Shown in pieces: positions 1,700-58,283 of a DNA stretch of 64,000 nt. Each line of letters begins with the position of its first letter. Within the stretch, counting starts at the first letter, position 1. The notes under the pieces are model-generated. The model was given only the letters and a program-made list of their open reading frames with translations. It did not search any database and was not told the DNA's origin. Position numbers and translations under genes: made by a program. Origin of the DNA: Candidatus Omnitrophota bacterium (GTDB lineage: Bacteria; Omnitrophota; Gorgyraeia; JAHJTE01); NCBI GenBank assembly GCA_018830005.1, contig JAHJTE010000001.1:1332-65331 (forward strand). Direction: 5' to 3'.

Positions 1700-2773
1700 C
1701 TATTTGTTATAAATAGTTTTTATCTTATGTGCTATCTCTTCTTGCGTTGGGATGCCTCCGCCTGTACGACCCAGGAAATCCACGCTACATCTAGCATCAA
1801 CTGCAAGTCTAACATCTTCTAGCATCTGCCCGGCGCTCATCTCAATAACCAGCACCTTTTTATTATTAGAGGCGTCTTTTATCTCCTTTGTAGGAAACGG
1901 CCAGAGACTTATTGGACGCAATAGGCCTAACCTTAAACCTTGTTTTCTTAAACTCCTGACCACGTCCTCTAGGATCCTGGCCATAATACCATAACTTACT
2001 ATTAAAAGTTTACTATCATTCAGAAAAGCGGCTTGATAGCGCACTTCTTTTTTCTGAATCTCTTTATATTTTCTCTGTAATTTTTTGTTAATCTCTTCTA
2101 ATGCGCCTTCTTTTAAAAATAGGGAACGAATTATATTAGGCCTTCTATTTTTAGCCCCCCTCAAGGCCCAGGATTTTTTAATTTTGATAGTCTTTAGTGC
2201 GTAGTGCTCAGCATTTAGATCTACTTGTTCCATCATTTGACCTAACATCCCGTCGGCTAAAATAATTACCGGCATCCTGTATTTATCAGCCAAATCAAAA
2301 GAGAGCTGTGCCAACTCATACGCCTCTTGCACATTAGAAGGTGCTAAGACAATCGAATGATAATCGCCGTGACCACCGCCTTTGACCGCCTGAAAATAAT
2401 CTGACTGGCTGGGAGCAATATTGCCTAAACCCGGTCCGCCGCGCATAACATTTACGATTACTGCTGGTAGCATGCATCCAGCCAGATAGGATATGCCTTC
2501 TTGTTTAAGGCTAATACCCGGGCTTGAAGAACTCGTCATCGCCCGTTTTCCGGCACAGCTTGCCCCAAATACCATATTAATCGCTGCGATTTCGCTTTCT
2601 GCCTGTATAAATATACCCTTAACTTGGGGCATCCTCCTGGAAAAATAAGCAGGTATCTCATTCTGAGGCGTAATCGGATAACCAGCATAGAAACGACAGC
2701 CAGCTAGAATAGCGCCTTCAGCAAATGCCTCATTCCCGCTCATCAATATTTTTTTTGGCTTTTTTGGACTCAT
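1700..2773 (-). CDS. 2-oxoacid:ferredoxin oxidoreductase alpha subunit
   Basis: 357 aa; pyruvate-flavodoxin/ferredoxin oxidoreductase domain similarity across the whole length. Sits between the delta and beta genes. Confidence 0.85.
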   Translation of the reverse strand: MSPKKPKKILMSGNEAFAEGAILAGCRFYAGYPITPQNEIPAYFSRRMPQVKGIFIQAESEIAAINMVFGASCAGKRAMTSSSSPGISLKQEGISYLAGCMLPAVIVNVMRGGPGLGNIAPSQSDYFQAVKGGGHGDYHSIVLAPSNVQEAYELAQLSFDLADKYRMPVIILADGMLGQMMEQVDLNAEHYALKTIKIKKSWALRGAKNRRPNIIRSLFLKEGALEEINKKLQRKYKEIQKKEVRYQAAFLNDSKLLIVSYGIMARILEDVVRSLRKQGLRLGLLRPISLWPFPTKEIKDASNNKKVLVIEMSAGQMLEDVRLAVDARCSVDFLGRTGGGIPTQEEIAHKIKTIYNK

Positions 2774-2778
2774 CGGAT

Positions 2779-2994
2779 TTATTTATATACCTCTATTGCC
2801 GCCTCCGGACAGATAATCGCACAGGCGCAACATCCTGTACAGGCCTTGCCTTTTTTCTCTAGGAATACCACAGGCTTATAGCCTACTTTATTTAGCGAAT
2901 GGCCTTTCTTTATATGTCCAAAAGGACAAAATACTATACACAGATTACATGCCTTACAACGTTTGCTATCAATCTTTATCTTTGCCATATGCAA
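2779..2994 (-). CDS. 2-oxoacid:ferredoxin oxidoreductase delta subunit (2x[4Fe-4S] ferredoxin)
   Basis: 71 aa with two CxxCxxCxxxCP clusters (CKACNLCIVFCP, CTGCCACAIICP). First gene of the operon. Confidence 0.75.
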   Translation of the reverse strand: MHMAKIKIDSKRCKACNLCIVFCPFGHIKKGHSLNKVGYKPVVFLEKKGKACTGCCACAIICPEAAIEVYK

Positions 2995-3046
2995 AAAGTT
3001 AGAGAATTATTGAGCTAGAACATATGTACCTATTTTTTATTTTTAT

Positions 3047-3553
3047 TTAACTTATGTCCACTCTTTTAATTCCCAGAATTCTAGAGAGGCGAATTAAAGT
3101 GAACATTGTGATATTTTTCTTTCCTTCTTCAACTCTGGAGATATCTGGTTGTTTCATACCTATTCTAAAAGCCAGTTGTTTTTGACTTAACCCTTTCTCG
3201 ACTCTTGCCTCTTTAATCAGTTTGCCGAATTCCCGAAAAAAAGCCGGAGTTTTTCCCTCAGCTCTTTTTTGTTTGTGTTGATACTCATCTAAAAGTTGTT
3301 CATATATTGTCTCCCACCAGTCTCTAAATTCCGATTGCCGTATACGTTTTACCCAGTAGACTCTAATCTTCGGCCATATTTTCACAAACTCTTTCTTGCT
3401 AATAACCGAAAAAAGCTCTTTCGGCTTATCACAACGCGATAAAAAAGTAGCCATTCGCATGGTAAATTTAGGGTGCTGAGAATTTTTTAGGATTTTTTTA
3501 GTTTCTCTTAGAGCCCCTTCTTTCAAATCCCAAAAGTATTTTGCAATAATCAT
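3047..3553 (-). CDS. XRE-family helix-turn-helix protein; an N-terminal domain of about 110 aa of unknown function precedes the C-terminal HTH
   Basis: The C-terminus LSQKQLAFRIGMKQPDISRVEEGKKNITMFTLIRLSRILG fits the Cro/C1 HTH_3 pattern. It overlaps the upstream nucleotidyltransferase gene by 4 nt (ATGA), implying translational coupling. Confidence 0.6.
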   Translation of the reverse strand: MIIAKYFWDLKEGALRETKKILKNSQHPKFTMRMATFLSRCDKPKELFSVISKKEFVKIWPKIRVYWVKRIRQSEFRDWWETIYEQLLDEYQHKQKRAEGKTPAFFREFGKLIKEARVEKGLSQKQLAFRIGMKQPDISRVEEGKKNITMFTLIRLSRILGIKRVDIS

Positions 3554-4260
3554 TCGATAACCTCTCTCATAAATTCTTTTATCTCATTCTCCAAATAAAT
3601 AATCATTTCCCTAGAGTTAAATTTCTTATCATAAATATCCATATCGATAAGTGCGAGCTTAAGATCTTGCCGAGAAAATGTTCGATACCAATGAATCATT
3701 CCTCTTTGTAATTGCGAAGAGACGTTCCGCAGGAATATATGCAATGGCTGTATGTTCTTTGAAAGCATATAAACATCAAACACATCACGCCCCTCCTTGC
3801 GACCTTCTATGATTTGCCTGCCTATCTCATCTATTTCAGGCCGAATCCCAGAAATGGCAATAATTTTCTGTAAATAGATATTTTCTACGCTATAAACACG
3901 GACTCCTTCAATTTTTCGTATCGCAGGATCTTGAAAAATAACATCTTCAACAAAATCAATCTTTAATGGTCTGCTAGAGCCCTTAACAGGTATAGTATAA
4001 AAACGAACCTTGGCCTTTCCGCCTGCCACAAACTCAGATTCCAAGTGTATCCTTTTATCTATATCTTTTCCAAATGCAGAGACCAAGTTATTTATTTCTG
4101 AAACCTCATATTTGTGTGAAAAGAAATCCAAATCTGCGGAAAAACGATGGTGTAAATAATACAATTCAAGGGCAGTGCCACCGGCAAGCCCAAAGTCATT
4201 AGCTTTCTTTGAAAAGACCTTTAAAATTTGATTCTGTGCTTTTCTGATTTTAGGATTCAT
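3550..4260 (-). CDS. Nucleotidyltransferase-fold protein, AbiEii/DUF1814-like (candidate toxin or abortive-infection effector)
   Basis: 236 aa. GGTALELYYLHHRFSADLDFF matches the hG[GS]-x(9-13)-DhD nucleotidyltransferase signature and the GGTAL...RFSxDLD pattern of AbiEii-type proteins. Confidence 0.55.
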   Translation of the reverse strand: MNPKIRKAQNQILKVFSKKANDFGLAGGTALELYYLHHRFSADLDFFSHKYEVSEINNLVSAFGKDIDKRIHLESEFVAGGKAKVRFYTIPVKGSSRPLKIDFVEDVIFQDPAIRKIEGVRVYSVENIYLQKIIAISGIRPEIDEIGRQIIEGRKEGRDVFDVYMLSKNIQPLHIFLRNVSSQLQRGMIHWYRTFSRQDLKLALIDMDIYDKKFNSREMIIYLENEIKEFMREVIE

Positions 4261-4276
4261 TTGGTTCTCAATAAAT

Positions 4277-4314
4277 ATAGGTTATAATCTATATATATAT
4301 AGATTATAACCTAT
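4277..4314. promoter_or_regulatory. 38-bp perfect palindrome containing TATAAT on both strands; putative operator/promoter of the nucleotidyltransferase-HTH operon
   Basis: ATAGGTTATAATCTATATA|TATATAGATTATAACCTAT; each half is the exact reverse complement of the other. It lies 17 nt upstream of the ATG at 4260. Confidence 0.5.
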
Positions 4315-4334
4315 ATTAAATATGTGTCAACTAT

Positions 4335-4358
4335 TTTCACAACTTATAAGTTGTGAAA
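4335..4358. promoter_or_regulatory. Second palindrome (TTTCACAACTTATAAGTTGTGAAA) in the same intergenic region
   Basis: 24-bp perfect inverted repeat followed by GCTGTTTTTG. It sits between the dxs 3' end and the nucleotidyltransferase promoter. Confidence 0.4.
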
Positions 4359-13516: not shown

Positions 13517-13790
13517 ATGTCAATTTACCCTTGCGGGTAAAGAAGCACATCAACTTATGTACACGACAAAAAACCCCGCTTGTGTCGTCGGATAGGATGA
13601 TGTGAACCGGTCTTCCTAAACGTGGGTGCCATCTCATCTGCCCACAAGCAAGATGAAGTAAAGCTCCCTGGAAAGTTGTGTTGGTTCTACAAATATCAAG
13701 TCTATCCGGCGAACACTGCAGGGAATCTTTCAATCATCTTTAGTATAACATGCGGCCAACTAAATTGCAAGGGAAACTGCTTTTTAGCTT

Positions 13791-44498: not shown

Positions 44499-44706
44499 TC
44501 TATTATGCATTCGGTAGCCAGACTATCCTAAAGTCTTTTAGGACCCTCAGCTTTGCGCCTACCCCTTACGGAGTGTTTGCCGTTTCGTGCTGCTAACCTT
44601 TAATTGTCAATTAAAGTATACCATAGAAAGCCTCAGAGTGCCATTTTTATTACTATTGTAACGCGTTATATTGTAATAAGTTATATAAATAAAAAAGATT
44701 GGATAA

Positions 44707-46149: not shown

Positions 46150-46246
46150 TTCTAGAAAATATCTTATAATAGTCTGGCCAATCCGTCAATGCATTTTTGC
46201 TTGACAATGGCCTAAGGGGGTGATATAGTAAGAAAACTTAACCTTT

Positions 46247-46367
46247 AAGTTGGCCCAGAGAGGCCAGCAAGGAAGATGGAAAATGAACCTAGAAAGGAAC
46301 AAATGTACCCTTGGCAGTCTTTGTGTGTCTAACGTGTTCTGACACAGGAAGGTCAAGGGATTTTTTA
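46247..46367 (+). promoter_or_regulatory. PyrR-binding attenuator (binding loop plus terminator) in the pyrR leader
   Basis: AAGTTGGCCCAGAGAGGCCAGCAAGGAAG matches the PyrR binding-loop consensus (..CCAGAGAGGCyrGCAAGG..). Downstream are the nested hairpins CCCTTG...TGTGTC-N10-GACACA...CAAGGG, then a TTTTTT tract. Confidence 0.65.
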
Positions 46368-46389
46368 TGCCTTCCAAGGAGAGGATTTT

Positions 46390-46950
46390 ATGATGAGTGA
46401 GCTTAAGGTCAAGGCCAAGATACTGGATAAGGATTCGATGCAGCGCATATTAAAGCGCCTGGCACACGAGATTATAGAGAAGAATAGCCAATGCAAGGAT
46501 AATCTATGTCTTATAGGCATACGTACGCGGGGTGTTTATGTGGCTGAAAGAATCAACTCTGAAATTGAAAAGATTATTGGCGTGAAATTGCCATTCGGGA
46601 TATTGGATATTACGCTTTATCGAGATGATTTGACGCTAGTTGGGCCTAGCCCGATTGTCAGAAAGACTCAAATCGATTTTGGCCTGGAAGATAAAAAGGT
46701 CATTTTGGTTGATGATGTTTTGTTTTCAGGCAGAACCATAAGGGCAGCCATGGATGAGCTGATAGACTTTGGCAGGCCCAAGGTCATAGGACTGGCTGTG
46801 CTTATTGACCGTGGCCACAGGGAATTGCCCATCCGGGCAGATTATGTTGGTAAGAATATCCCGACCTCCTTGCAGGAAATAGTGGAAGTGCGTCTGGAAG
46901 AGATTGACGCTAAAGATGAAGTAGTGGTTGTAGAGAAAAAGGCAGGCTAG
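46390..46950 (+). CDS. pyrR: Bifunctional pyrimidine operon regulator / uracil phosphoribosyltransferase
   Basis: 186 aa; phosphoribosyltransferase-type fold with VILVDDVLFSGRT. Confidence 0.9.
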   Translation: MMSELKVKAKILDKDSMQRILKRLAHEIIEKNSQCKDNLCLIGIRTRGVYVAERINSEIEKIIGVKLPFGILDITLYRDDLTLVGPSPIVRKTQIDFGLEDKKVILVDDVLFSGRTIRAAMDELIDFGRPKVIGLAVLIDRGHRELPIRADYVGKNIPTSLQEIVEVRLEEIDAKDEVVVVEKKAG

Positions 46951-46953
46951 ATA

Positions 46954-47886
46954 ATGACCTGGACAAGAAAAGATTTACTAGGCCTGGAAGATTTAAGCCC
47001 AGAAGAAATCAAATTTATTTTAACTACTGTGGAGTCGTTTAAAGAGGTTTCCACCCGGGCTATTAAAAAGGTGCCTGCACTGCGGGGAAAGACAGTAGTA
47101 AATTTGTTTTACGAGCCCTCTACCAGGACAAGGGTGTCTTTCGAAGTAGCTGCCAAAAGGTTATCTGCAGATGTAATCAATATAGATATTGAGACCTCTA
47201 GCATCAAAAAAGGCGAGACCTTGATTGACACAGGAAAGAATATCCAGGCCTTAAACGCAGACATTATTATCATAAGACATTCTTGTTCAGGCGCAGCGAT
47301 GTTATTGGCGAAGCATGTAGATATCAGCGTGGTTAATGCTGGTGATGGTCGGCATGAGCATCCGACGCAGGCGCTGCTAGACATTTATACCTTGCAGGAA
47401 AAATTTGGCAGAATCGAAGGATTAAATGTAAGTATTGTCGGAGATATTGCTCATTCGCGCGTAGCACGTTCAAATATCTGGGGTCTAACCAAATTAGGCG
47501 CTAAGGTAACAGTTTGCGCTCCCAGGATGCTTATTCCACCTGCTATAGAACAGATAGGAGTGCGCGTAACCCACGATATAGATGATGCCTTGAAAAAAGC
47601 AGATGCAGTGAATGTCTTGCGTATGCAGTTTGAACGTGACGAAGAAGGTGCCTTTCCTAAACAAATAGAATATTTTAGGAATTTTGGCATAACGAGTGAA
47701 AGGCTAAAGCGGGCAAAAAAGAATATTCTCCTCATGCATCCAGGACCATTAAATCGAGGCACTGAGATATCTAGTGAAGTTGCAGATGGCCCTAATTCCG
47801 TCATATTAGAGCAGGTTACCAATGGTATTGCAGTAAGGATGGCAGTGTTGTTTTTGGTATCACAAGGCGCTACGAAATCGCGCTAG
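46954..47886 (+). CDS. pyrB: Aspartate carbamoyltransferase catalytic subunit
   Basis: 310 aa; STRTR carbamoyl-phosphate motif and HPGP...LP. Confidence 0.9.
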   Translation: MTWTRKDLLGLEDLSPEEIKFILTTVESFKEVSTRAIKKVPALRGKTVVNLFYEPSTRTRVSFEVAAKRLSADVINIDIETSSIKKGETLIDTGKNIQALNADIIIIRHSCSGAAMLLAKHVDISVVNAGDGRHEHPTQALLDIYTLQEKFGRIEGLNVSIVGDIAHSRVARSNIWGLTKLGAKVTVCAPRMLIPPAIEQIGVRVTHDIDDALKKADAVNVLRMQFERDEEGAFPKQIEYFRNFGITSERLKRAKKNILLMHPGPLNRGTEISSEVADGPNSVILEQVTNGIAVRMAVLFLVSQGATKSR

Positions 47887-48021
47887 CGATTTCATAGCAC
47901 TAGTCCTGCAGAATTTTTTCCTTCGAAATTCAAAGAATTTCAAAGGACTAAAGTACCCGAAATTTATTTGAAATTTCAGGGTGCAAATTCTGTAGGGCAA
48001 AGAGAAAAGAAAAGCATCACG

Positions 48022-49299
48022 ATGAAACTATTAATCAAAAATGGCCATGTAGTTGATCCGGCAAATAAGATAGATGATATTCTAGATATCTTGATAGATG
48101 CTAATAAGATATCTCTGGTTGGCAAAGATATCAAGGCAAGTGTTGATAAAACAATAGATGCCACTAAAAGAATAGTTATGCCGGGAATTATAGATATGCA
48201 TGTACATTTACGTGAACCCGGCAGAGAAGATAAAGAGACGATTGCTTCAGGCACACTGGCAGCCTTAAAAGGCGGAATCACTTCTGTCTTGGCTATGCCA
48301 AATACTCAAATTCCTATTGATTGCAGCCAGAATCTGAAGTTGCTAAAAAGTATTATTAAAAAAACCAGCCATGCAAATGTATTAATTGCCGCAGCAATTA
48401 CCAAGGCACGCCAAGGTAAAGAGCTTACTGAAATTTCCCAATTGAAAAAAGAAGGCATACTCGCGATTACAGATGACGGTGCATCAGTAGATGATGAGAG
48501 GTTAATGTCAGAGGCGCTAAAACAAGCTATGAAGCATAAAGTTTTAGTAATTTGTCATTGTGAAGATGTATCAATATCTAAGGATGGCGTAATTAATCTG
48601 GGGTTTATTTCAACACGTCTGGGTTTGAGGGGGGTATCTTGCGAGTCAGAATATAGGAGGGTCAGGCGTGATATCCAATTGGCAGAAAAATTAGGGGCAT
48701 CTATTCATATTGCACACGTAAGTTGTAAAGAATCCGTAGAGATTATTGCTAAGGCTAAAAAAAAGAGCCTCAGACTAAGCGCAGAAACTGCACCGCATTA
48801 CTTTTCTTTTAGCGAAGAAGACCTACTAGGATATAATACTAACATGAAGGTGAATCCGCCGCTACGAAGCAAAGAAGACGTTGTTGAGATAAAACAAGGA
48901 TTAAAAAGCGGTGTCATTGATGTTATTGCCTCTGATCACGCACCTCATACTGACAATGAGAAGATAATAGAATTTGAACGTGCAGAATTTGGGGCAATTG
49001 GCCTAGAGACAGAATTAGCTGCCTCCATTACTGAGCTAGTGGATCAAGGCATCTTGAATTGGACGCAGTTAGTGCAGAAATTTACAGTTAATCCAGCAAA
49101 GATTTTAGGAATTGATAGAGGCACATTAGGAAAAGGCGCTATCGCTGATATAATCATTGTAGATACTGAAAGAGAATGGACTGTAGAAAGCAAGGATTTC
49201 CTCTCCAGGTCTAAGAATTCTCCTTTTATTGGTCGCAGGCTAAAAGGCATTGTTGAGCTTACTATTTTAAATGGTAAGATTGCTTATAATCGGTGCTAA
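48022..49299 (+). CDS. pyrC: Dihydroorotase
   Basis: Amidohydrolase with DMHVHLREPG and the DHAPH motif. The ORF-track start at 47968 is a TTG; the first ATG (MKLLIKNGHVV) at 48022 is preferred. Confidence 0.85.
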   Translation: MKLLIKNGHVVDPANKIDDILDILIDANKISLVGKDIKASVDKTIDATKRIVMPGIIDMHVHLREPGREDKETIASGTLAALKGGITSVLAMPNTQIPIDCSQNLKLLKSIIKKTSHANVLIAAAITKARQGKELTEISQLKKEGILAITDDGASVDDERLMSEALKQAMKHKVLVICHCEDVSISKDGVINLGFISTRLGLRGVSCESEYRRVRRDIQLAEKLGASIHIAHVSCKESVEIIAKAKKKSLRLSAETAPHYFSFSEEDLLGYNTNMKVNPPLRSKEDVVEIKQGLKSGVIDVIASDHAPHTDNEKIIEFERAEFGAIGLETELAASITELVDQGILNWTQLVQKFTVNPAKILGIDRGTLGKGAIADIIIVDTEREWTVESKDFLSRSKNSPFIGRRLKGIVELTILNGKIAYNRC

Positions 49300-49312
49300 T
49301 CTGCGAAAGATC

Positions 49313-49765
49313 ATGAAGTTTGTAGTGACAAAGGAATTAGGAAAACTGGCAAAGTGGTTGCGGATTTTTGGGTTTGACACTATTTACTTTAAGGAAGCCA
49401 CTTTTAGTACAGTATTAATTATTGCATTTCAGGAAGACAGGATTATCCTAACCAGAAACACCAAAATCGGCGTACATTCTGGAGTGCGGATTATTACAAT
49501 CAAAAGCAATAATTTGGCTGAGCAGCTTAATCAGGTTTTTAGAGAGCTAAAATCCAAGCCGCAGAAAGAGAAGATGTTTAGCCGTTGTATTCTTTGCAAC
49601 GAAGAATTAAGCCACATTGCTAAAGAAAAAATTAAGAAAAAAGTACCTGAATATGTTTATAAAACGCAAAGCTCATTTGTAGCCTGCCCTGAATGCAAAC
49701 GCGTATATTGGCAAGGAACACATTGGGGTAAAGTAGAGGAAGCACTGCATGCAATTCGTAGCTGA
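49313..49765 (+). CDS. Mut7-C RNase-domain (DUF82) protein with a C-terminal zinc ribbon
   Basis: MKFVVTKELGKLAKWLRIFGFDT is the signature DUF82 N-terminus; the zinc ribbon is CILCN...CPECK. Start taken at the internal Met (49313) preceded by an RBS-like sequence. Confidence 0.6.
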   Translation: MKFVVTKELGKLAKWLRIFGFDTIYFKEATFSTVLIIAFQEDRIILTRNTKIGVHSGVRIITIKSNNLAEQLNQVFRELKSKPQKEKMFSRCILCNEELSHIAKEKIKKKVPEYVYKTQSSFVACPECKRVYWQGTHWGKVEEALHAIRS

Positions 49766-52223
49766 TTTTCACATTCATTCTAAATATTCTCGTGCCACAA
49801 GCCGCGAGATGGATATAGAACATCTTGCTAAATGGGCAAAGATAAAAGGTATCTCTCTTTTAGGCACAGGAGATTTTACGCACCATCTTTGGCTTGAGGA
49901 GCTAAAGGCAAATTTAGAGCCGAAAGACAACGGCCTCTTTGTTTATAACGGGATAAACTTTATCTTGACTGCTGAAATTAGCAGTATCTATTCAAAAAAA
50001 GGACGCACCTATCGTATACACAATTGTTTACTTGCGCCGTCTTTTGAAACAGTGGATAAGATTAATGCCCGACTTTCAGAGATAGGGAATCTCGCCTCTG
50101 ACGGAAGACCGATTTTAGGTTTGGATGCTAAGGAATTAGTAAGAATAGTCTTAGATATTGATCCAAATTGTATGATTATTCCCGCCCATTGTCTTCTACC
50201 AGATAGTCATATTCATACCAAGCTTGGAATTAAAAAAATTAAAGACATTCAAGAAGGAGAATTGGTCTATACGCACAAGTCAAATATTAAAAAAGTTACA
50301 AAGACTTTTAAAAGACAATATAAAGGGGAGATTTATCATATCAAACCATTTTATTTCAGAGAAGGGTTAAAGACAACGCCAGAACACCCATTTTATGTCA
50401 TTAAGACATATAAAAATTGTCCGTCAACTCAGGGATATTGCAAGAAGGATTGTTGTCATATCAAGAAAGGTTGTAAGCGTAGATTTTATGAAGATTATAA
50501 GCCTGGCTGGGTACAAGCAAAAGACATAGAAAATAGTGACGTACTTCTGTTCCCCAGATTTATTAATAATTCGAGAGATATTAATGAGATAAAATTAAGT
50601 GATTATATAGAAGCCGATTTTACATTAAAGAATAATAAAATTGCTCCTAATGGAAGTAGAGTTCATTGGTTGCCAAATAATATTAAAATAGATGAAGATT
50701 TTTGTAGATTGGTAGGTTATTATTTAGCAGAAGGCTATACTAATAATCGCGATCAGATTTCTTTTTGTTTCAAAGATAGCGAGCTAGACTATATTAATGA
50801 TGTTAAATTTTTGGTGAAGAAAATTTTTGATATTAACTTATCTAGCAATCGAATCAGGGAGGGCGTCAACAGCATAGAATTAAATTTTTGTTCAAAGATT
50901 TTACTCAACCTATTTAGCAAGTTTTTTTACGTTAGTAATCCAGCAAAGACTCATAATAAATGCCTACCGGGTTGGATGTTGCAGCTTTCAGCTGTTAAGC
51001 AGATGCAAATTCTAAAAGGTTGGTGGCGTGGCGATACAGGCTATACATCTTCGCAAACGCTTATGAATCAAATGAAGATTATATTGTTAAGATTAGGTAT
51101 TATTCCTTCAATCCGGGTTGATTCTATTCAAGATCATTTTAAACGTGGTAAACACAAGATTGGAGAAAGAGATGTAGTAGCTAAATATGACAACTATTAC
51201 TTTTCTAATTTGTCTTTCTTTGAAGATGAACATAGTTTATTAAATGACCCTAGTTTTGAAAAATTTAGGACAAAATTACAACGTAGACATGGTTGGATGG
51301 ACGACAAATATATTTATATACCGGTTAAGGATATAGAAGTGAGTAATTATAACGGAGAAGTTTACAATCTAGAAGTTGAAGATGATAATTCTTATGTTAG
51401 TGAATTTGCAATTGTCCATAATTGTTGGACCCCCTGGTTCAGTCTTTTTGGTTCAATGTCAGGATTTGATAAAATTGAGTATTGCTTTGAAGAGCAGACT
51501 AAAAACATATTCTGCTTAGAAACCGGCCTTAGTAGCGATCCGGCTATGAACTGGCGATTATCAGCACTGGATAGGTTTTCTTTAATCAGCAACTCTGACA
51601 GTCACTCTCCTTCCCGTATTGGCCGCGAAGCCAATGTCTTTGATTGCGGCTTAGATTACAAGACTATAATGGAGGTTTTAAAGACAAAGGATAAGAAGCG
51701 TTTTCTCTATACTATTGAATTTTTCCCACAAGAAGGGAAATATCATTTTGATGGGCATAGAAATTGTGGCATTTGTTTTAGCCCGCAAGAATCCCGAAAA
51801 CATAAGAACCGTTGTCCAAAATGCGGTCGCGCTTTAACTATAGGGGTTATGAACAGGGTAGAACAGTTGGCAGATAGGCCTGTGGGATTCGTCCCGGAAA
51901 ACAACATCCCATTTAAGAATCTTATCCCTCTGGATGAGATTATCTCTGAGGTGCGAGGTGTAGGCAAGGCCTCCAAGACAGTCACGAATGAGTACAATAC
52001 AATTATACATAAATTCCAGACAGAGTTTGATGTGTTAGTCAAGGCAACCAGGGAAGAGCTGGCAAAAAGTCTTCCTGAGAAAATTGTAGAAGGGATTATG
52101 CGCGTTAGACAAGGCAGGGTCGACATTCTACCTGGACATGACGGCGAATACGGCAAGATTAAGATCTTTGATGAGAATGAAAAAGGTAAACCTACAGGAG
52201 AGGAGCAGCTGAGCCTGTTTTGA
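49749..52223 (+). CDS. Endonuclease Q (EndoQ)-like PHP-domain protein, interrupted by a 411-aa intein
   Basis: Exteins (413 aa): DFHIHSKYSRATS...GTGDFTH...SDGRP...IIPAH | CWTPWFSLFGS...SNSDSHSP...GKYHFDGHRNCGICF...CPKCGRAL...GHDGEYGKIKI. This matches the archaeal EndoQ architecture: PHP fold, zinc finger, and a C-terminal GxYGxI. Confidence 0.7.
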   Translation: MQFVADFHIHSKYSRATSREMDIEHLAKWAKIKGISLLGTGDFTHHLWLEELKANLEPKDNGLFVYNGINFILTAEISSIYSKKGRTYRIHNCLLAPSFETVDKINARLSEIGNLASDGRPILGLDAKELVRIVLDIDPNCMIIPAHCLLPDSHIHTKLGIKKIKDIQEGELVYTHKSNIKKVTKTFKRQYKGEIYHIKPFYFREGLKTTPEHPFYVIKTYKNCPSTQGYCKKDCCHIKKGCKRRFYEDYKPGWVQAKDIENSDVLLFPRFINNSRDINEIKLSDYIEADFTLKNNKIAPNGSRVHWLPNNIKIDEDFCRLVGYYLAEGYTNNRDQISFCFKDSELDYINDVKFLVKKIFDINLSSNRIREGVNSIELNFCSKILLNLFSKFFYVSNPAKTHNKCLPGWMLQLSAVKQMQILKGWWRGDTGYTSSQTLMNQMKIILLRLGIIPSIRVDSIQDHFKRGKHKIGERDVVAKYDNYYFSNLSFFEDEHSLLNDPSFEKFRTKLQRRHGWMDDKYIYIPVKDIEVSNYNGEVYNLEVEDDNSYVSEFAIVHNCWTPWFSLFGSMSGFDKIEYCFEEQTKNIFCLETGLSSDPAMNWRLSALDRFSLISNSDSHSPSRIGREANVFDCGLDYKTIMEVLKTKDKKRFLYTIEFFPQEGKYHFDGHRNCGICFSPQESRKHKNRCPKCGRALTIGVMNRVEQLADRPVGFVPENNIPFKNLIPLDEIISEVRGVGKASKTVTNEYNTIIHKFQTEFDVLVKATREELAKSLPEKIVEGIMRVRQGRVDILPGHDGEYGKIKIFDENEKGKPTGEEQLSLF
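50190..51422 (+). mobile_element. Intein with a LAGLIDADG homing-endonuclease domain inside the EndoQ-like gene
   Basis: CLLPDSHIHT (block A) ... LVGYYLAEGYTNN and LKGWWRGDTGYT (LAGLIDADG blocks) ... FAIVHN, then a +1 Cys. A Cys-rich insert (CPSTQGYCKKDCCHIKKGCKRR) follows block B. Confidence 0.75.
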
Positions 52224-52232
52224 ATTAGATTA

Positions 52233-52304
52233 GCGCCTGTAGCTCAATGGATAGAGCAGTGGCCTCCGGAGCCATGTGTGCAGGTTCGACTCCTGCCAGG
52301 CGCA
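52233..52304 (+). tRNA. tRNA-Arg (anticodon CCG)
   Basis: GCGCCTGTAGCTCAATGGATAGAGCAGTGGCCTCCGGAGCCATGTGTGCAGGTTCGACTCCTGCCAGGCGCA. Confidence 0.85.
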
Positions 52305-52336
52305 TTTCAAGGCAGTTAAATAAAGGAGCATGGGAC

Positions 52337-52798
52337 ATGTTAACTAATTGCAAGGCAATAGTTTCCGTAATTGGTGGCCATAAATGTTCTAAAGAAGTGG
52401 AGGAAATAGCCATAAATTTAGGCAAAAATATAGGTAAAAGTGGTTATATTTTAGTATGTGGAGGCCTAAGTGGAGTAATGGAAGCAGCAGCAAAGGGCGC
52501 CAAACAGACAGGTGCTACCACAGTTGGCATATTACCAGGCAATGATAAATGCGTTGCCAATCCTTATATTGACGTTGCGATTGCTACTGGTTTAGGTATG
52601 GTCAGGAATACCATCGTAGTTTCTGCTGCAGATGCTGTTGTGGCCTTAGCAGGAGAAAAAGGCACTTTATCTGAAATTGCCTTTGCCCTTACATTAGAAA
52701 AACCAGTAATTGACTTAGGGAACTGGGGCCTTCCAGGCATGATTAAGGCTAGCTCACCAGAAGAGGCAATACAGATTATAGAGGGAGTTATCAAATAA
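52337..52798 (+). CDS. TIGR00725/LOG-family Rossmann-fold protein
   Basis: 153 aa from the ATG at 52337 (RBS AAAGGAG upstream); SVIGGHKCS...ILVCGGLSGVMEAAAKGA...GILP pattern. The longer ORF-track start would run through tRNA-Arg. Confidence 0.6.
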   Translation: MLTNCKAIVSVIGGHKCSKEVEEIAINLGKNIGKSGYILVCGGLSGVMEAAAKGAKQTGATTVGILPGNDKCVANPYIDVAIATGLGMVRNTIVVSAADAVVALAGEKGTLSEIAFALTLEKPVIDLGNWGLPGMIKASSPEEAIQIIEGVIK

Positions 52799-52803
52799 GA
52801 TCA

Positions 52804-53616
52804 ATGCCAGAACTACCTGAAATAGAAACCATAAAAAGAGAGTTAAAACCAAAACTCCTAGGCAAGAGAATTACAAAGGTCTTAATAAAGCGTTCTCGAG
52901 TTATCCGCATGCCATCAAAAAGAGTGTTTGTCGATAAAATAAAGCATGCGTGTATTAAGTCCATCTCAAGGCGCGGCAAGGCATTAATATTTGAACTATC
53001 AGGCCCTGGTTTGAGGCAACGGTTTTTAGTAGTTCACCTACGTATGAGCGGCCAATTAATATATCCGGGAGACGCGCACAAGGCGCGAGTAAGTTTTAAA
53101 TTCTCCGATGGCAGCATGCTTGATTTCAATGACCAGCGGCTTTTAGGAGAGATTTTTCTTTTGGATGACTGGCAAGAGCTAGCGTTTTTTAAACGTCTGG
53201 GACCCGAGCCATTTGATATATCATGGCGTGATTTCTCAAGGTCACTCCAGGGCAGAAAGGCCAAGATTAAACCATTGCTCATGGACCAATCTTTCATTGC
53301 TGGTATTGGCAATATCTATGCTGCCGAGGCCTTGTTTAAGGCCAGGATAGCGCCCCAGAGAAAGGCGCAGAGTCTTTCCTCAAAGGAAAAAAATAGGCTA
53401 TTTAAATCCATTACTTCTATATTAGCCGAGGCGATAAGAAGAAAAGGCTCATCCATAGACCAGTATGTGCGTTCAGACGGAAAAAGAGGCATGTTTGCGC
53501 GTCAACATAAGGTATACAACAGAAAAGGAGAGTCTTGCTTTGTCTGCAGGAGTCCTATAAAGAGAATAGCGCTTGCAGGCAGAGGGACTTATTTTTGTTC
53601 AAGGTGCCAGAGATGA
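52804..53616 (+). CDS. mutM: Formamidopyrimidine-DNA glycosylase
   Basis: 270 aa; MPELPEIETIKREL N-terminus (catalytic Pro2/Glu3), H2TH domain, C-terminal zinc finger CFVCRSPIKRIALAGRGTYFCSRCQ. Confidence 0.9.
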   Translation: MPELPEIETIKRELKPKLLGKRITKVLIKRSRVIRMPSKRVFVDKIKHACIKSISRRGKALIFELSGPGLRQRFLVVHLRMSGQLIYPGDAHKARVSFKFSDGSMLDFNDQRLLGEIFLLDDWQELAFFKRLGPEPFDISWRDFSRSLQGRKAKIKPLLMDQSFIAGIGNIYAAEALFKARIAPQRKAQSLSSKEKNRLFKSITSILAEAIRRKGSSIDQYVRSDGKRGMFARQHKVYNRKGESCFVCRSPIKRIALAGRGTYFCSRCQR

Positions 53617-54440
53617 AAGAAAGAAACACCAAACACAAACAGAATATCATTCAGACCAAGGCCAAGATCCTCTTTAACAAAAGGATTGTCGATAATTTTT
53701 ATAAAATTAGTATCAGGGCACCTAAGATTGCAAAGGCTGCTTTACCAGGACAGTTTTTGAATATAAAAGTTAACGATACCTATCAACCGCTTTTAAGAAA
53801 GCCATTAGGAATCAATAGAATTAGAGACAAAGGCAATAAGACTGGACTAGATATTTTATATAAGGTAGTAGGCGAGGGCACAGAGGCCCTCTCTCACAGG
53901 CAGAGCGGAGAATATATTGATATATTAGGTCCTTTGGGTAATGGCTTTTCCTTAGATTTTACTGCTGATAGATTGAAAGAGGATGAGATATTTCTTGTTG
54001 CTGGCGGCATTGGTATTGCACCTCTTTTGTTTCTGGCTGAGAGAATATTGGAAAACTCATCTTGCCAGAAATTAATCGTATTGATCGGCGCTAAAACCAA
54101 AAGCCATATTCTCTGCCAAAAAGAATTCAAAGATTTAGGTTGTAATGTTTTGGTGGCTACAGATGATGGCAGCTGCGGCTTTAGGGGCAATGTAACAGAT
54201 TTATTCAGGAAGACCTTGGGATCAGAAAGAGCAACGGTCTATATTTGTGGTCCCCGTCCTATGCTTAAAGAAACAGCAAGGATCGGCGCTAGGCGTGCTT
54301 TTTCCTGCTTTGGTCTTTTAGAGGAATACATGGCTTGTGGTACGGGTGCTTGTTTCGGCTGCGTGGTTGCTACAACTGGCGGTTATAAACGCGTATGCAA
54401 GGAAGGGCCAGTATTTGACTTAAAGTCAATCAAGTGGTAG
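53613..54440 (+). CDS. pyrK: Dihydroorotate dehydrogenase electron-transfer subunit
   Basis: FAD/NAD-binding fold plus a C-terminal 2Fe-2S cluster (CGTGACFGC). Start at ATG 53613, overlapping the mutM stop (ATGA). Confidence 0.85.
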   Translation: MKERNTKHKQNIIQTKAKILFNKRIVDNFYKISIRAPKIAKAALPGQFLNIKVNDTYQPLLRKPLGINRIRDKGNKTGLDILYKVVGEGTEALSHRQSGEYIDILGPLGNGFSLDFTADRLKEDEIFLVAGGIGIAPLLFLAERILENSSCQKLIVLIGAKTKSHILCQKEFKDLGCNVLVATDDGSCGFRGNVTDLFRKTLGSERATVYICGPRPMLKETARIGARRAFSCFGLLEEYMACGTGACFGCVVATTGGYKRVCKEGPVFDLKSIKW

Positions 54441-54624
54441 AATGAGTTCGCTCTTCATACTTATTGGCGGGCTCGCGTAAATTGTCTGTACCCATTATCC
54501 CTTGCTTATGCACTTGAAAATTTCTACGAAATTTTCTGCGTAAGCTTCGGGATAAATTCGACCAAACAACTTATGTTCGCACTTCGTGCTCCATAAGCTG
54601 TGGTCTTATTTAAAGGAGGTCAAT

Positions 54625-54891
54625 ATGTTTTATACAGCAGATCTATTGAGGATAGGAGGATCAGTTCTGGGGATAGTTGGCATTCTATTATCCGTAGGGT
54701 TAATCTTTTTTCCCAAGCAGCTGCTTACACTAAACAATATACTTAACAGGCAGATTTCTACAGATAAATTAAGGCTTGCTTTGGAAAAGGAATTCGATAT
54801 TACCAATATTATTATGCAGGCAAGAGTCCTTGCCGGAGTCATTACTTTATTGTTATCATTTATTTTATTGACGATAGCCATAAAGGTTTAG
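54625..54891 (+). CDS. Small 2-transmembrane membrane protein
   Basis: 88 aa from the ATG at 54625, preceded by AAAGGAGG. Hydrophobic segments IGGSVLGIVGILLSVGLIFF and VLAGVITLLLSFILLTIAI. Confidence 0.35.
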   Translation: MFYTADLLRIGGSVLGIVGILLSVGLIFFPKQLLTLNNILNRQISTDKLRLALEKEFDITNIIMQARVLAGVITLLLSFILLTIAIKV

Positions 54892-56082
54892 TTGGTAAAT
54901 AATAAAATAGATCGATATAGCCCCCTTGAATTGAGCCAGAACCCATTTATTTCAATAATCATCCCAGTACGCAACGCTGCCCGGACACTACCTACCACTT
55001 TTAACTATCTCTTTCGCGTTGATTATCCTAGAGACAAGATGGAGATAATTATTGCCGATGGAGGTAGCAGCGACGATACTGTTAGCGTAATCAGGCATTG
55101 GCAAAAGGACTACTCCTTTATAAAACTTGTTGAAATTCCCAATTGTCCTTCCCCTGGTTTTGCCAGGAATAAGGCGCTTAAGGTAGTTAAGGGAGAGTTT
55201 ATCTTTTTTACTGATGGCGATTGCGCACCTGCGTCTGACTGGATATGGAAGATATTGAAGGTCTTTTCGCGTGATGAGAACATTGCTGCTGTTGGTGGAG
55301 AGGTGCATACATTGCGCGTGGATAAGGATAATGTTGTTGAGGCATGGTGTGAGCACTTTGGCTTTAATATGGTGAGCCCTCGCTATGGTTTTATTAAAGA
55401 AGGATATTTTCCTGATTTTCCCAAAGACCCTACCCCAGCAGATGTGGCTGGACATCGGGCATATTTTTTTGGCACCTGTAACGTTGCCTATCGAAAAGAA
55501 GCGCTCGATGTAGCAGGTGCGTATTTCTGGGAAAGGCCTACGGGTGAAGATATGGAATTGAGTTTGCGAACAAGAAAACACGGGTATAAATTTTATTTTG
55601 CACCAGATGCAGACGTAAAACATATGCACAGGGCAAACCTAAAGCAGCTACTAAATGTATGGGCATCTTATGGCAGGGCCCATCCTGTCCTGATTGAGAA
55701 ATATATTAGAAAACACAGATTAGACATCATTTTACAATTCTTAAAAAGCAAACCTGTACTGTCTTTTCCTTTTCCTATCCGAGGTTTTATTTATCTTGGC
55801 AACCTACAGCTTGGGATTCTTTGTCTTATTCTCTCTTTAGTCTCTGGCCTTGCTATTATTTTAGGCAACAGTTCTGCCGGTTTATTAGTTAGTCTGGGAA
55901 TTTTTGTGATGGGTTTTGTTTTGTTTTCTTTTAATTATTTCAAGGCCTGTTTTGATATGCAGCCAAGGAGATTATTTCTAAGCTGGTGTGCAATGAAATT
56001 CCTGACCAATATTTATTTTATTCGCGGAGGCTTAGAAGGCATTTTCAAGCATAAGATATTGTGCATTGAACCAAGTTTCTAG
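54892..56082 (+). CDS. Family-2 glycosyltransferase with C-terminal transmembrane helices
   Basis: 396 aa; SIIIPVRNAARTL and IIADGGSSDDT, the GT-A DxD region; about four C-terminal TM helices. A TTG start is inferred. Confidence 0.7.
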   Translation: MVNNKIDRYSPLELSQNPFISIIIPVRNAARTLPTTFNYLFRVDYPRDKMEIIIADGGSSDDTVSVIRHWQKDYSFIKLVEIPNCPSPGFARNKALKVVKGEFIFFTDGDCAPASDWIWKILKVFSRDENIAAVGGEVHTLRVDKDNVVEAWCEHFGFNMVSPRYGFIKEGYFPDFPKDPTPADVAGHRAYFFGTCNVAYRKEALDVAGAYFWERPTGEDMELSLRTRKHGYKFYFAPDADVKHMHRANLKQLLNVWASYGRAHPVLIEKYIRKHRLDIILQFLKSKPVLSFPFPIRGFIYLGNLQLGILCLILSLVSGLAIILGNSSAGLLVSLGIFVMGFVLFSFNYFKACFDMQPRRLFLSWCAMKFLTNIYFIRGGLEGIFKHKILCIEPSF

Positions 56083-56199
56083 ATCAGAGATGGGGAATTG
56101 AAGATAGTAGCCCCCCTGCAGAATTCAACGAATTCTACAGGATCAGTCCTAATAGAAATTCTTTCAGAATTTCTGTGGGAGGGTCAGGAGGAGGGTGCG

Positions 56200-56646
56200 A
56201 TGAAGAGAAAGAAAGGAATAACTATATTTGGTATAGCTAGTATAGTCATTGCCCTATTGCAACATTTTCTATTAACAAAGCAGTATTTGAAGCTAATTCT
56301 AATTATCGATGGATATCAAAAAACCATCTCTATAAGACCGCTATTGTCTCTTTTTTATCAATTCTTAATACTTACTTCAGCTTTTTTGGCAATTAATGGT
56401 TTAGTCATTCTTATTCGGAAAAGGATTTTAGAAGTACCTACCGCATTTATTCTTGTTATAAACTATATTATCTTCATTGTTCCTGCGATTTATATAGTCA
56501 AACTTGGACATAATAATATGACGCTTTTGCCACTTTATCCAAAAGATAGCATTTTAGTAATTTTAATATTTATGGTTTCGGTTTATACAATTGGTTCACT
56601 GGCATATTTAGTTCTATCTAAACCCCAAAGTAAAGGAGCAGTCTAG
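56200..56646 (+). CDS. Polytopic membrane protein of unknown function
   Basis: 148 aa from the ATG at 56200 (RBS AGGAGGAG upstream); 4-5 predicted transmembrane helices. Confidence 0.4.
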   Translation: MKRKKGITIFGIASIVIALLQHFLLTKQYLKLILIIDGYQKTISIRPLLSLFYQFLILTSAFLAINGLVILIRKRILEVPTAFILVINYIIFIVPAIYIVKLGHNNMTLLPLYPKDSILVILIFMVSVYTIGSLAYLVLSKPQSKGAV

Positions 56647-56652
56647 TTAATT

Positions 56653-57603
56653 ATGGCAGTTAAACAGAAAAACTTATCAGTACGCATCGGTAAATTAGCC
56701 CTTTCTTCTCCTCTCATTGCTGCCTCAGGCACGTTTGGGTATGGCCAGGAGTTAGAGGGGCTGATTGATTTTAAAGATTTCGGCGCTATTATTACAAAGA
56801 CAATAACCCTAAAAGCGCGTAAGGGAAATCCACCGCCTCGCTTGATAGAGACTCCCTGGGGGTTGCTTAATTCCATTGGACTAGAGAATCCTGGTATTGA
56901 TGTATTCTTGAGGGATAAATGGCCATATTTAGCAAGATTAAAAACCCCTGTCATTATAAGCATAGGCGGAGAAACTAAAGATGAATTTGTAAGGCTTACT
57001 AAGCGTCTGGATAGATTAGAAGATTTGAAGGCAATAGAGGTTAATATCTCTTGTCCTAATATTAAGAAGGCGAAAATCAAAAAGAGAAAGACGCAAGGCC
57101 TAACAATGTTTTCTCAAGGTATAGATGAGACATTTGCTGTTGTTAAGGTAGTGCGTAAGCTAACGTCTAAGACATTGATTGTTAAGCTTACGCCCAACGT
57201 TACGGATATTTCTAGTATAGCCATTGCTGCCTCAAGCGCTGGAGCAGATGCACTTTGTTTAGTAAATACCTATTTTGGCATGGCTGTTGATATCCAAAAC
57301 AGGAGGCCTCAGCTTGCGAATATAACCGGAGGTTTAAGCGGCCCGGCAATAAAGCCATTAAGTCTTTATGCGGTTTATAAGACATACAAGGCAGTGAGAA
57401 AACCTATTATCGGCGGAGGAGGCATTATGAATAGCGCTGATGCTATCGAATTTTTAACCTGCGGGGCAACAGCGTTGTCTTTAGGAACAGTAAACTTTAT
57501 TAATACCAAGGCCCCTAAGGAAATTTTGACGGGAATAAAAGGCTATTTGAAAAAGAATAAGATTAAGGATATTTATAAGCTTAGAGGTAGTTTGCGTACA
57601 TGA
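56653..57603 (+). CDS. pyrD: Dihydroorotate dehydrogenase catalytic subunit (class 1B)
   Basis: 316 aa; LSSPLIAASGTFGYG and NSIGLENPG motifs. Confidence 0.9.
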   Translation: MAVKQKNLSVRIGKLALSSPLIAASGTFGYGQELEGLIDFKDFGAIITKTITLKARKGNPPPRLIETPWGLLNSIGLENPGIDVFLRDKWPYLARLKTPVIISIGGETKDEFVRLTKRLDRLEDLKAIEVNISCPNIKKAKIKKRKTQGLTMFSQGIDETFAVVKVVRKLTSKTLIVKLTPNVTDISSIAIAASSAGADALCLVNTYFGMAVDIQNRRPQLANITGGLSGPAIKPLSLYAVYKTYKAVRKPIIGGGGIMNSADAIEFLTCGATALSLGTVNFINTKAPKEILTGIKGYLKKNKIKDIYKLRGSLRT

Positions 57604-58283
57604 AGACAAAACTCATAGTTGCATTGGATGTTGATAGTTTTAGTAAGGCAAAGGCTATCGTAAATAGATTAGGCCCTTGTGTGAGAGCTTACAAGGTAGG
57701 CAGCCAATTGTTTATTGCCTCAGGCATAGAGATTGTTCTCTGGCTAAAACGCAAACATAAGAATGTGTTTCTGGATTTAAAGTTGCATGATATACCCAAT
57801 ACTGTTGCTGCTAGCGCCAGGCAAATAACCAAACTTGGCGTTTATATGTTTACGATTCATGCTACTGGTGGCAAGGTGATGATGCGCGGCTGTGTCAAGG
57901 CAGTCAGATCAGAGGCAAGTCGCCTTAAGATTAAAAAACCAGCTGTGCTTGCTGTAACTGTGTTAACCAGCCAGAAATCCACCAATACCAAAAGAGATGT
58001 CCTGAGGTTGGCAAAGGAGGCGCTATCTTGCGGAGTTGATGGAATTGTCTGTTCAGTAGAAGAGGCACATCTTTTACATAGAAAACTAAAACATAAGTTC
58101 ATTCTGGTCTGTCCGGGTATAAGAAGCGCAACCAACAAAAAATCGGACCAGAAAAGAATAGCTACGCCACAGCAGGCAAAGAAGGCGCAGGTTGACTTTA
58201 TTGTAGTGGGCAGGCCAATAATAGAGGCTCCTTCTGCTTCTCTTGCAGCTGTAAATATATTGAACGCACTCAAAGAAAGATAG
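57600..58283 (+). CDS. pyrF: Orotidine 5'-phosphate decarboxylase
   Basis: 227 aa; LIVALDV and LDLKLHDIPNT motifs. Confidence 0.9.
   Translation: MKTKLIVALDVDSFSKAKAIVNRLGPCVRAYKVGSQLFIASGIEIVLWLKRKHKNVFLDLKLHDIPNTVAASARQITKLGVYMFTIHATGGKVMMRGCVKAVRSEASRLKIKKPAVLAVTVLTSQKSTNTKRDVLRLAKEALSCGVDGIVCSVEEAHLLHRKLKHKFILVCPGIRSATNKKSDQKRIATPQQAKKAQVDFIVVGRPIIEAPSASLAAVNILNALKER

Follow-up and report, generated by a model that had tools for sequence, protein, structure and literature searches.

Several kinds of small, non-coding palindromic repeats have been described in bacterial genomes. They include the repetitive extragenic palindromes (REPs) and bacterial interspersed mosaic elements (BIMEs) of enterobacteria and pseudomonads, with their REP-associated tyrosine transposases (RAYTs) and REPIN doublets, the enterobacterial repetitive intergenic consensus sequences or intergenic repeat units (ERIC/IRU), the BOX, RUP and Correia elements, classical miniature inverted-repeat transposable elements (MITEs), and the palindrome-associated transposable elements (PATEs), which are hairpin-ended, non-autonomous derivatives of IS200/IS605 insertion sequences (ISs). 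Neither Rfam nor literature searches on palindromic or intergenic repeats of Omnitrophota (Omnitrophica) gave a description of such repeats. Here we analyse palindromes at three gene junctions of an operon containing pyrimidine biosynthesis (pyr) genes in a 64,000-nt stretch of a Candidatus Omnitrophota bacterium (assembly GCA_018830005.1, contig JAHJTE010000001.1, positions 1,332 to 65,331), referred to below as the window. They belong to two families of small repeats, palindromic and modular, that are probably non-autonomous, mobile or recombining DNA of the REP/BIME/ERIC kind. As far as literature searches and Rfam show, this is the first description of modular palindromic repeats in this uncultivated phylum.

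Palindromes in the pyr gaps and the family-1 unit

A sequence-only reading of the window had listed five related palindromes, (a) to (e), in three intergenic gaps: gap 1 between pyrB and pyrC (47887-48021), gap 2 downstream of pyrK (54441-54624) and gap 3 downstream of a GT2 glycosyltransferase gene (56083-56199). All five are present, (b) at 47956-47981, (c) at 54516-54536, (d) at 56116-56140 and (e) at 56154-56174 exactly as listed, and (a) shifted by one base, at 47919-47947 instead of 47918-47946. They fall into two families and not one, with (a), (b), (d) and (e) in family 1 and (c) in family 2. Nor are (a) and (d) preceded by a common word, as had been supposed: CCTGCAGAATT occurs exactly twice in the window, at 47905 and 56115, and the second occurrence is the left arm of (d) itself.

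The pattern GAAATTC-N2-6-GAATTTC has 2 matches in the window against 0.00 in 100 shuffles, and the 27-nt pattern CCTNNNRAATTCAAMGAATTYNNNAGG, taken from (a) and (d), has 4 matches with up to three mismatches where 0.01 are expected; (a) and (d) both fit a single 27-nt hairpin, CCTNNNRAATTC-AAM-GAATTYNNNAGG. Since the half-site words are not over-represented (7 occurrences of GAAATTC, about 6 expected) and the shared 11-mer CCTGCAGAATT alone has no significance against the whole 64 kb, the signal lies in the arrangement of the words and not in their frequency. Folding revealed structures that had been overlooked. Gap 1 has an RNA fold z-score of -8.3, with 47905-47996 forming one nested structure and a further hairpin at 47869-47898 spanning the pyrB stop codon, and in gap 2 (z = -5.3) a 59-nt hairpin at 54496-54554 has (c) at its tip. 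Gap 3 as a whole folds unexceptionally (z = -1.0).

The family-1 unit is about 65 nt long and consists of a first hairpin, H1 (27 nt, CCTnnnRAATTC-AAA-GAATTYnnnAGG), a linker AYTAGT and a second hairpin, H2 (26-38 nt), the loops being AAA in H1 and of a TTTCA type in H2; H2 looks like a diverged, inverted H1. Every one of these hairpins is either intergenic or reaches into the end of a gene. Three units, U1 to U3, are found in the window. U2 (47917-47984, plus strand) has (a) as its H1 at 47920-47946, the linker ACTAAAGTA and (b) as its H2, and scores 59.8 bits with covariance model R1. U3 (56112-56181, plus strand), placed between the GT2 gene and an orphan open reading frame (ORF), has (d) as its H1 at 56115-56141, the linker ATCAGT at 56142-56147 and an H2 at 56148-56179 that contains (e); it scores 66.4 bits with the same model.

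U1 lies on the minus strand and is interrupted. Its H1 extends over 47905-47996, with the arms CCTGCAGAATT at 47905-47915 and AATTCTGTAGG at 47986-47996 and a loop that holds U2. Its linker, the canonical ACTAGT, occupies 47899-47904, and its H2 is the hairpin GCTACGAAATCGC-GCTA-GCGATTTCATAGC at 47869-47898, with the pyrB stop codon (47884-47886) in or beside the loop. The outer stem CCTGCAGAATT/AATTCTGTAGG and the 47869-47898 hairpin were assigned to one minus-oriented unit because the minus strand of 47897-47919, AAAAAATTCTGCAGGACTAGTGC, reads as the right arm of H1 followed by the linker (AAAAAATTCTGCAGG-ACTAGT-GC), and a covariance-model match of 19.8 bits covers 47865-47915 on that strand. 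Judged from this arrangement, gap 1 is a minus-oriented U1 with a plus-oriented U2 nested in its H1 loop. A second covariance model, R2, built only from six Omnitrophota copies outside the window, recovers U3 (56112-56183, 60 bits, E 5e-14) and U2 (47917-47985, 44.2 bits, E 8e-10) and has no further match in the window.

Presence and absence in related Omnitrophota

The pyrB-pyrC junction was compared in seven related Omnitrophota loci (labelled L with a number) whose PyrB proteins are 83-93% identical to that of the window. The gap is 3 nt in the closest relative (L003, PyrB 93% identical), the two genes overlap by ATGA in L147 and L149, and the gap measures 52 nt in L150, 198 nt in L148, 183 nt in L004 and 178 nt in L005; the longer gaps hold long, lineage-specific hairpins unrelated to family 1. 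In L003, L147 and L149 the sequence CAAGG is followed directly by (A/C)AGAGA...ATG, where the window has 131 nt extra (alignment A2). This composite insertion, 47868-47998, consists of the two nested units U1 and U2. In this one clean comparison of an empty and a filled site there is no target-site duplication (CAAGG|insert|AAAGAG). The final five codons of pyrB and its stop come from the insertion, which changes the C-terminus from ...QGKR* in L003 to ...QGATKSR* and would break the translational coupling of pyrB and pyrC that these three relatives maintain by the overlap or the 3-nt gap.

Between pyrK and pyrD, an 88-aa membrane protein gene (54625-54891) and the GT2 gene (54892-56082) had been taken for an inserted glycosyltransferase cassette. 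The pair is conserved in L004, L147 and L149 and hence is not a recent cassette. What those three loci lack between GT2 and pyrD is the 148-aa orphan ORF directly 3' of U3 (56200-56646, plus strand), so that U3 stands at the left edge of a lineage-specific segment. This ORF encodes a predicted membrane protein by its hydrophobic sequence, has no homologue other than itself among 5.8 billion proteins and is possibly not a genuine gene. It is given 182 or 148 aa by two annotations of this sequence, which also differ in the starts of pyrC and GT2, and repeats of this kind can mislead gene callers.

The relatives have recurring long hairpins of their own at these junctions: in L004 (9410-9575 and 11196-11290) CCCTTGACATC-AAA-GATGTCAAGGG followed by CMAATTCGCA occurs twice, L148 (4177-4374) and L150 (4444-4495) share CCCGCCCTTCCT...AGGAAGAGCGGGG, and L147 (19940-20037) and L149 (17507-17588) share GTAGCGAGTAG...CTACTCGCTAC. 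Lineage-specific hairpin repeats thus seem to be general in this group of Omnitrophota.

Dispersal, nesting and covariation of family 1

Among 185,579 species, each represented by one genome, the 27-nt H1 pattern has 11 matches, 5 of them in Omnitrophota. All 5 share features that lie outside the pattern, namely an AYTAGTCC linker and, after it, another hairpin whose loop is of the TTTCA type, while the remaining 6 are either unrelated hairpins or coincidental matches within coding sequence. One near-perfect long hairpin that matches the pattern, AGAAATTCCCCTTGAAAATTC-AAA-GAATTTTCAAGGGGAATTTCT, lies at about 205-253 of L128, a metagenome-assembled genome of the Firmicute family Oscillospiraceae; it has neither linker nor H2 and, on that sequence, is probably unrelated. 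A metagenome scan with AAMGAATTYNNCAGGAYYAGTCC gave 8 matches, of which 7 are due to chance in coding sequence and one (L146) is a true unit, bringing the Omnitrophota assemblies with a family-1 unit outside the window to six. Both families are known here only from Omnitrophota. In viral contigs, CCTGCAGAATT-N3-33-AATTCTNNAGG had 2 matches, neither a family member by covariance model, and AATTYNNCAGGAYYAGTCC had 27 matches and no members; the pattern GAAATTC-N3-5-GAATTTC, with at least 120 matches there, lacks the specificity needed for searching large collections. BLAST searches of plasmids with the unit and of phages with gap 1 returned nothing relevant.

The copies elsewhere stand beside unrelated housekeeping genes: fabD/fabF/fabG; leuA/aroE/aroC; tRNA-Arg/tadA/tRNA-Ser; a gene for a MiaB-like enzyme; and a TPR protein gene with uvrA. 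A role specific to pyr genes is rejected on this ground. According to Pfam searches of the flanking genes, no copy has a transposase beside it. Relative to neighbouring genes, 8 copies are sense and 3 antisense, and two of the antisense copies overlap stop codons (U1 at pyrB and the L134 copy at uvrA), so that the repeats alter gene ends in both genomes.

Nesting is not confined to gap 1. L135 carries a second unit within the H2 loop of the first, and in L138 there are two copies 700 nt apart, the second of which has a 21-nt insert in the loop of H1. The two L138 copies are identical at 37 of 38 positions in H2 and differ in H1, which shows exchange at the level of modules. Across ten aligned units the stems are kept by compensatory change, with 83.9% of cells paired and 12 pairs changed on both sides; none of 500 shuffles scored as high, and slid controls reached 31-47%. 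Neither folding energies nor G-U counts (12 sense versus 19 antisense) set the sense strand apart, as expected of DNA palindromes. The tetranucleotides GTAG/CTAC occur in some arms (U1, U3, L136, L138) and are missing from L134, L137 and L146, and the unit ends, CCCTG...CAGGG, are inverted only weakly and inconsistently.

Family 2

Palindrome (c) belongs to an element of about 125 nt (54488-54615, plus strand) whose long hairpin, Hc (54496-54554, TATCCC...GGGATA), has the tip GAAAATTTC/GAAATTTTC and which further includes a AAATTCGACC box and, at about 54567-54600, another hairpin. The window copy ends just 5' of the Shine-Dalgarno sequence and ATG at 54625. It is 77% identical over about 120 nt to L136 3183-3365 once a family-1 unit inserted there is removed. 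Other copies are found at L136 5676-5779, L138 815-888, L138 1994-2090 and in L135, with partial matches in L004; the sites recur at non-orthologous loci with unrelated downstream genes. Family-2 copies of L136 and L138 contain a family-1 unit, in both cases inserted after GCTTCG. This site is filled at L136 3241-3302 and L138 2088-2179 and empty in the window, at L138 815-888 and at L136 5676-5779.

A promoter-like site, TTGACT-17-TAGAAT with TG, lies at the 3' end of pyrK (54415-54443, plus strand), proposed from its consensus match, and the same hexamers are present in the corresponding gaps of L147 and L149. If this promoter fires, the family-2 element would be an insertion in a 5' untranslated region (UTR).

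Genomic context

According to Pfam and ORF calls, the pyr-containing gene string runs from pyrR (46390-46950) and pyrB (46954-47886) through pyrC (48022-49299), a Mut7-C RNase gene (49271-49765), an MJ0043_C-family gene (49749-52223, plus strand), a tRNA-Arg gene, a LOG-like gene, fpg (52804-53616) and pyrK (ending at 54440) to the membrane protein gene, GT2 and the orphan ORF, and on to pyrD (56653-57603) and pyrF (57600-58283). The tRNA-Arg(CCG) gene (52233-52304, plus strand) sits between the intein-bearing MJ0043_C-family gene and the LOG-like gene within this otherwise co-directional string. The MJ0043_C-family protein has 824 aa with an intein and a LAGLIDADG domain and is intein-free, at 409-413 aa, in relatives; gyrA and gyrB of the same genome also bear inteins (L001 1-4117), and gyrA of L003 and L147 is intein-free (810 aa).

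Upstream of pyrR, a sub-threshold match to the PyrR binding site RF00515 covers 46238-46368 with 37.7 bits (E 7e-4), the gathering score being 54. It is preceded by a strong promoter-like site, TTGACA-17-TATAGT (11/12, with TG; 46201-46368 with the match, plus strand). This weak PyrR leader is likely the true regulatory leader of the operon, with PyrR as the likely regulator of the pyr genes. In gap 1 and in 54400-56300, RF00515 has no match even at E <= 10.

Elsewhere in the window, a c-di-GMP-I riboswitch (44510-44591, minus strand, 57 bits) lies upstream of a 195-aa gene without a Pfam match, beside an alginate-export-family outer-membrane gene, and a 6S RNA match is found at 13569-13727 (minus strand, 48.4 bits against a gathering threshold of 46.4). 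A perfect 44-nt AT-rich palindrome (4274-4317) and a second palindrome, TTTCACAACT-TATA-AGTTGTGAAA (4335-4358), are unrelated to both families. An AbiEii toxin and helix-turn-helix (HTH) pair occupies about 2600-4300, and just beyond the window start genes with Bro-N and Fic domains stand amid small unannotated ORFs (L151 14095-17994); together this region looks like a defence or mobile island.

Origin and possible roles of the repeats

On the account that we consider probable, the repeats come and go at gene junctions, enter one another's hairpin loops in either orientation and form mosaics, and in this genome were inserted into three junctions of the pyr-containing operon. The enzyme that mobilises them would act in trans and recognise hairpins; a transposase of the HUH/Y1 class that works on single-strand DNA, of the RAYT or IS200/IS605 type, is the most likely candidate. 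Such an enzyme is favoured over a DDE transposase because the ends are hairpins, no target duplication is seen and terminal inverted repeats are not consistent. Effects on the host would be incidental, for example the uncoupling of pyrB from pyrC or the placement of stem-loops in the operon mRNA. The suggestion in the sequence-only reading of a small REP/MITE-like family marking insertion junctions was thus largely right, as the units are insertions when compared with relatives and one lies at the edge of the orphan segment, except that two families are involved.

Several observations weigh against this account. Copy number looks low: within the window and 20 kb beyond its ends (84 kb) there are three units, all within 8.3 kb, with no further one in the rest of the window or past its ends, each of five fully scanned genomes has one exact H1-pattern match, and 82 kb of the relatives' pyr loci contain no family-1 unit. 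Neither a transposase nor a full-length parent element was found among the genes flanking the copies, a conserved target sequence or GTAG signature could not be made out, and boundaries are clean for a single empty/filled pair. The conservation of loops and linker across divergent genomes (GC 39-53%) would also suit a functional motif. Finally, the family-2 copies seen (5-6) are all sense and abut a Shine-Dalgarno sequence and ATG or a tRNA gene, which could indicate a role at the RNA level.

Such a role is the main rival explanation, a possibility of some weight that we nonetheless regard as unlikely. The units and family 2 would be functional structured RNAs, acting in cis in operon transcripts from 5'-UTR or intercistronic positions on mRNA stability, processing or translation, selected for this function and spread by recombination instead of as selfish DNA. 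Besides the conserved loops and the placement of family 2, the strong predicted folds of gaps 1 and 2, the covariation of both stems, the 8 sense copies among 11 and the promoter-like site ahead of the window family-2 copy all fit this explanation, and the other long hairpins at the same junctions in relatives hint that hairpins are tolerated or favoured there. However, three copies are antisense, two of these overlapping gene ends, units nest in opposite orientation, the sense strand shows no excess of G-U pairs or stability, the downstream genes are functionally unrelated and the elements are wholly absent from the closest relatives. Moreover, Rfam searches of the whole window at gathering thresholds and of the three gaps and L136 at E <= 10 gave no relevant family, only spurious microRNA-precursor-like matches far below threshold. 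A DNA repeat and an RNA role are compatible, as a repeat, once inserted, can be recruited to serve as a stem-loop of the mRNA.

More tentatively, and with a smaller chance of being correct, the family-1 unit, at about 65 nt, could represent a novel type of element in its own right, either a very small mobile element that targets DNA hairpin loops, including its own, or an undescribed structured RNA motif of Omnitrophota with family 2 as a portable 5' leader.

It is improbable that the hairpins are substrates of a site-specific recombinase, similar to integron attC or Xer/dif sites, that shuffles small cassettes such as the orphan ORF. The imperfect structured palindromes of about 60-130 nt, the conservation of structure and not of stem sequence, and the position of U3 beside the orphan segment are what this would predict, but the other end of that segment lacks a matching site, and the copies stand in housekeeping operons with no integrase nearby in the annotated flanks. 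Whereas attC sites form a single long hairpin with RYYYAAC/GTTRRRY cores and accompany cassettes and an integrase, the family-1 unit has two hairpins, and no GTTRRRY (R') core is visible in its sequence.

There is very little to recommend a local and independent origin of the hairpins by slippage or template switching in AT-rich spacers, with their likeness a low-complexity coincidence. It would suit the unremarkable frequency of the half-sites and of the shared 11-mer, the near-palindromic nature of GAAATTTC-type words in themselves and the unrelated hairpins of the relatives. As regards homology it is refuted by the sequence comparisons: the model built from other genomes recovers both U2 and U3, including the linker and H2 that were not used in finding those genomes, the family-2 copy matches a non-orthologous locus of another genome, and shuffled sequence yields practically no matches.

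Least credible of all, and largely refuted by the comparative data, is the proposal in the sequence-only reading of a shared operator linking the pyr and glycosyltransferase genes, that is, double-stranded DNA sites for one dimeric transcription factor, for although palindromic half-sites with 3-5 nt spacers do occur in three gaps of one operon and are presumably similar to AT-rich operators such as the CodY box, the orthologous junctions of the seven relatives are empty or hold unrelated sequence, the same unit stands beside unrelated genes in other genomes, its stem positions covary freely, unlike a fixed half-site, a nested insert of 70 nt interrupts one of the sites, and the sites lie inside the operon and not at a promoter, while a (sub-threshold) PyrR-type leader and a strong promoter-like site precede pyrR. 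The pyr region is thereby freed of a regulatory interpretation that is attractive but mistaken.

Comparison with known repeat systems

The mobile-repeat interpretation can be set against the described systems. Like BOX, RUP, Correia elements and MITEs, the families described here are small, non-coding and modular (in an A-B-C-like manner), form stable stem-loops and lie between genes whose ends can be changed by them. They also show the presence/absence polymorphism of MITEs, the pyrB-pyrC junction of the window having an insertion that L003, L147 and L149 lack, and the family-1 insertion point within family 2 being likewise variable. Classical MITEs and Correia elements differ in having terminal inverted repeats and a target-site duplication, neither of which is seen at the one clean insertion here.

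PATEs resemble family 1 in having two different subterminal hairpins in a defined orientation, in lacking terminal repeats and target duplication, and in being plausible hairpin substrates in single-strand DNA. They are far larger than the unit of about 65 nt, and for family 1 neither was a parent IS with tnpA or tnpB found near the copies nor could a conserved target tetranucleotide be defined.

With ERIC/IRU the families share long imperfect palindromes in transcribed intergenic regions, conservation in distant genomes with a patchy and sometimes low copy number, presence and absence between relatives, and variants with internal insertions at fixed points. ERIC/IRU measure about 127 nt, compared with about 65 and about 125 nt here, and belong to another phylum with another sequence; the internal insertions here are copies of the families' own elements.

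REPs and BIMEs differ from family 1 in number, with hundreds per genome as opposed to the apparently few and clustered copies here, which looks like the main departure from classical REPs. Nor does family 1 show a consistent GTAG tetranucleotide or a sequence relationship to REPs, and no RAYT appears among the annotated 60 kb. In other respects they agree: the family-1 hairpins are imperfect extragenic palindromes of 20-40 nt that also occur within operons, the unit is a doublet of inverted related hairpins without terminal repeats or target duplication that can overlap the 3' ends of genes, and units in both orientations form mosaics through conserved linkers, here as H1-AYTAGT-H2, which is found on either strand, in nested form and linked to family-2 modules. 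The insertion of units into each other's loops sets family 1 apart from REPs and BIMEs, and this nesting in hairpin loops offers a concrete handle on which enzyme moves such elements.

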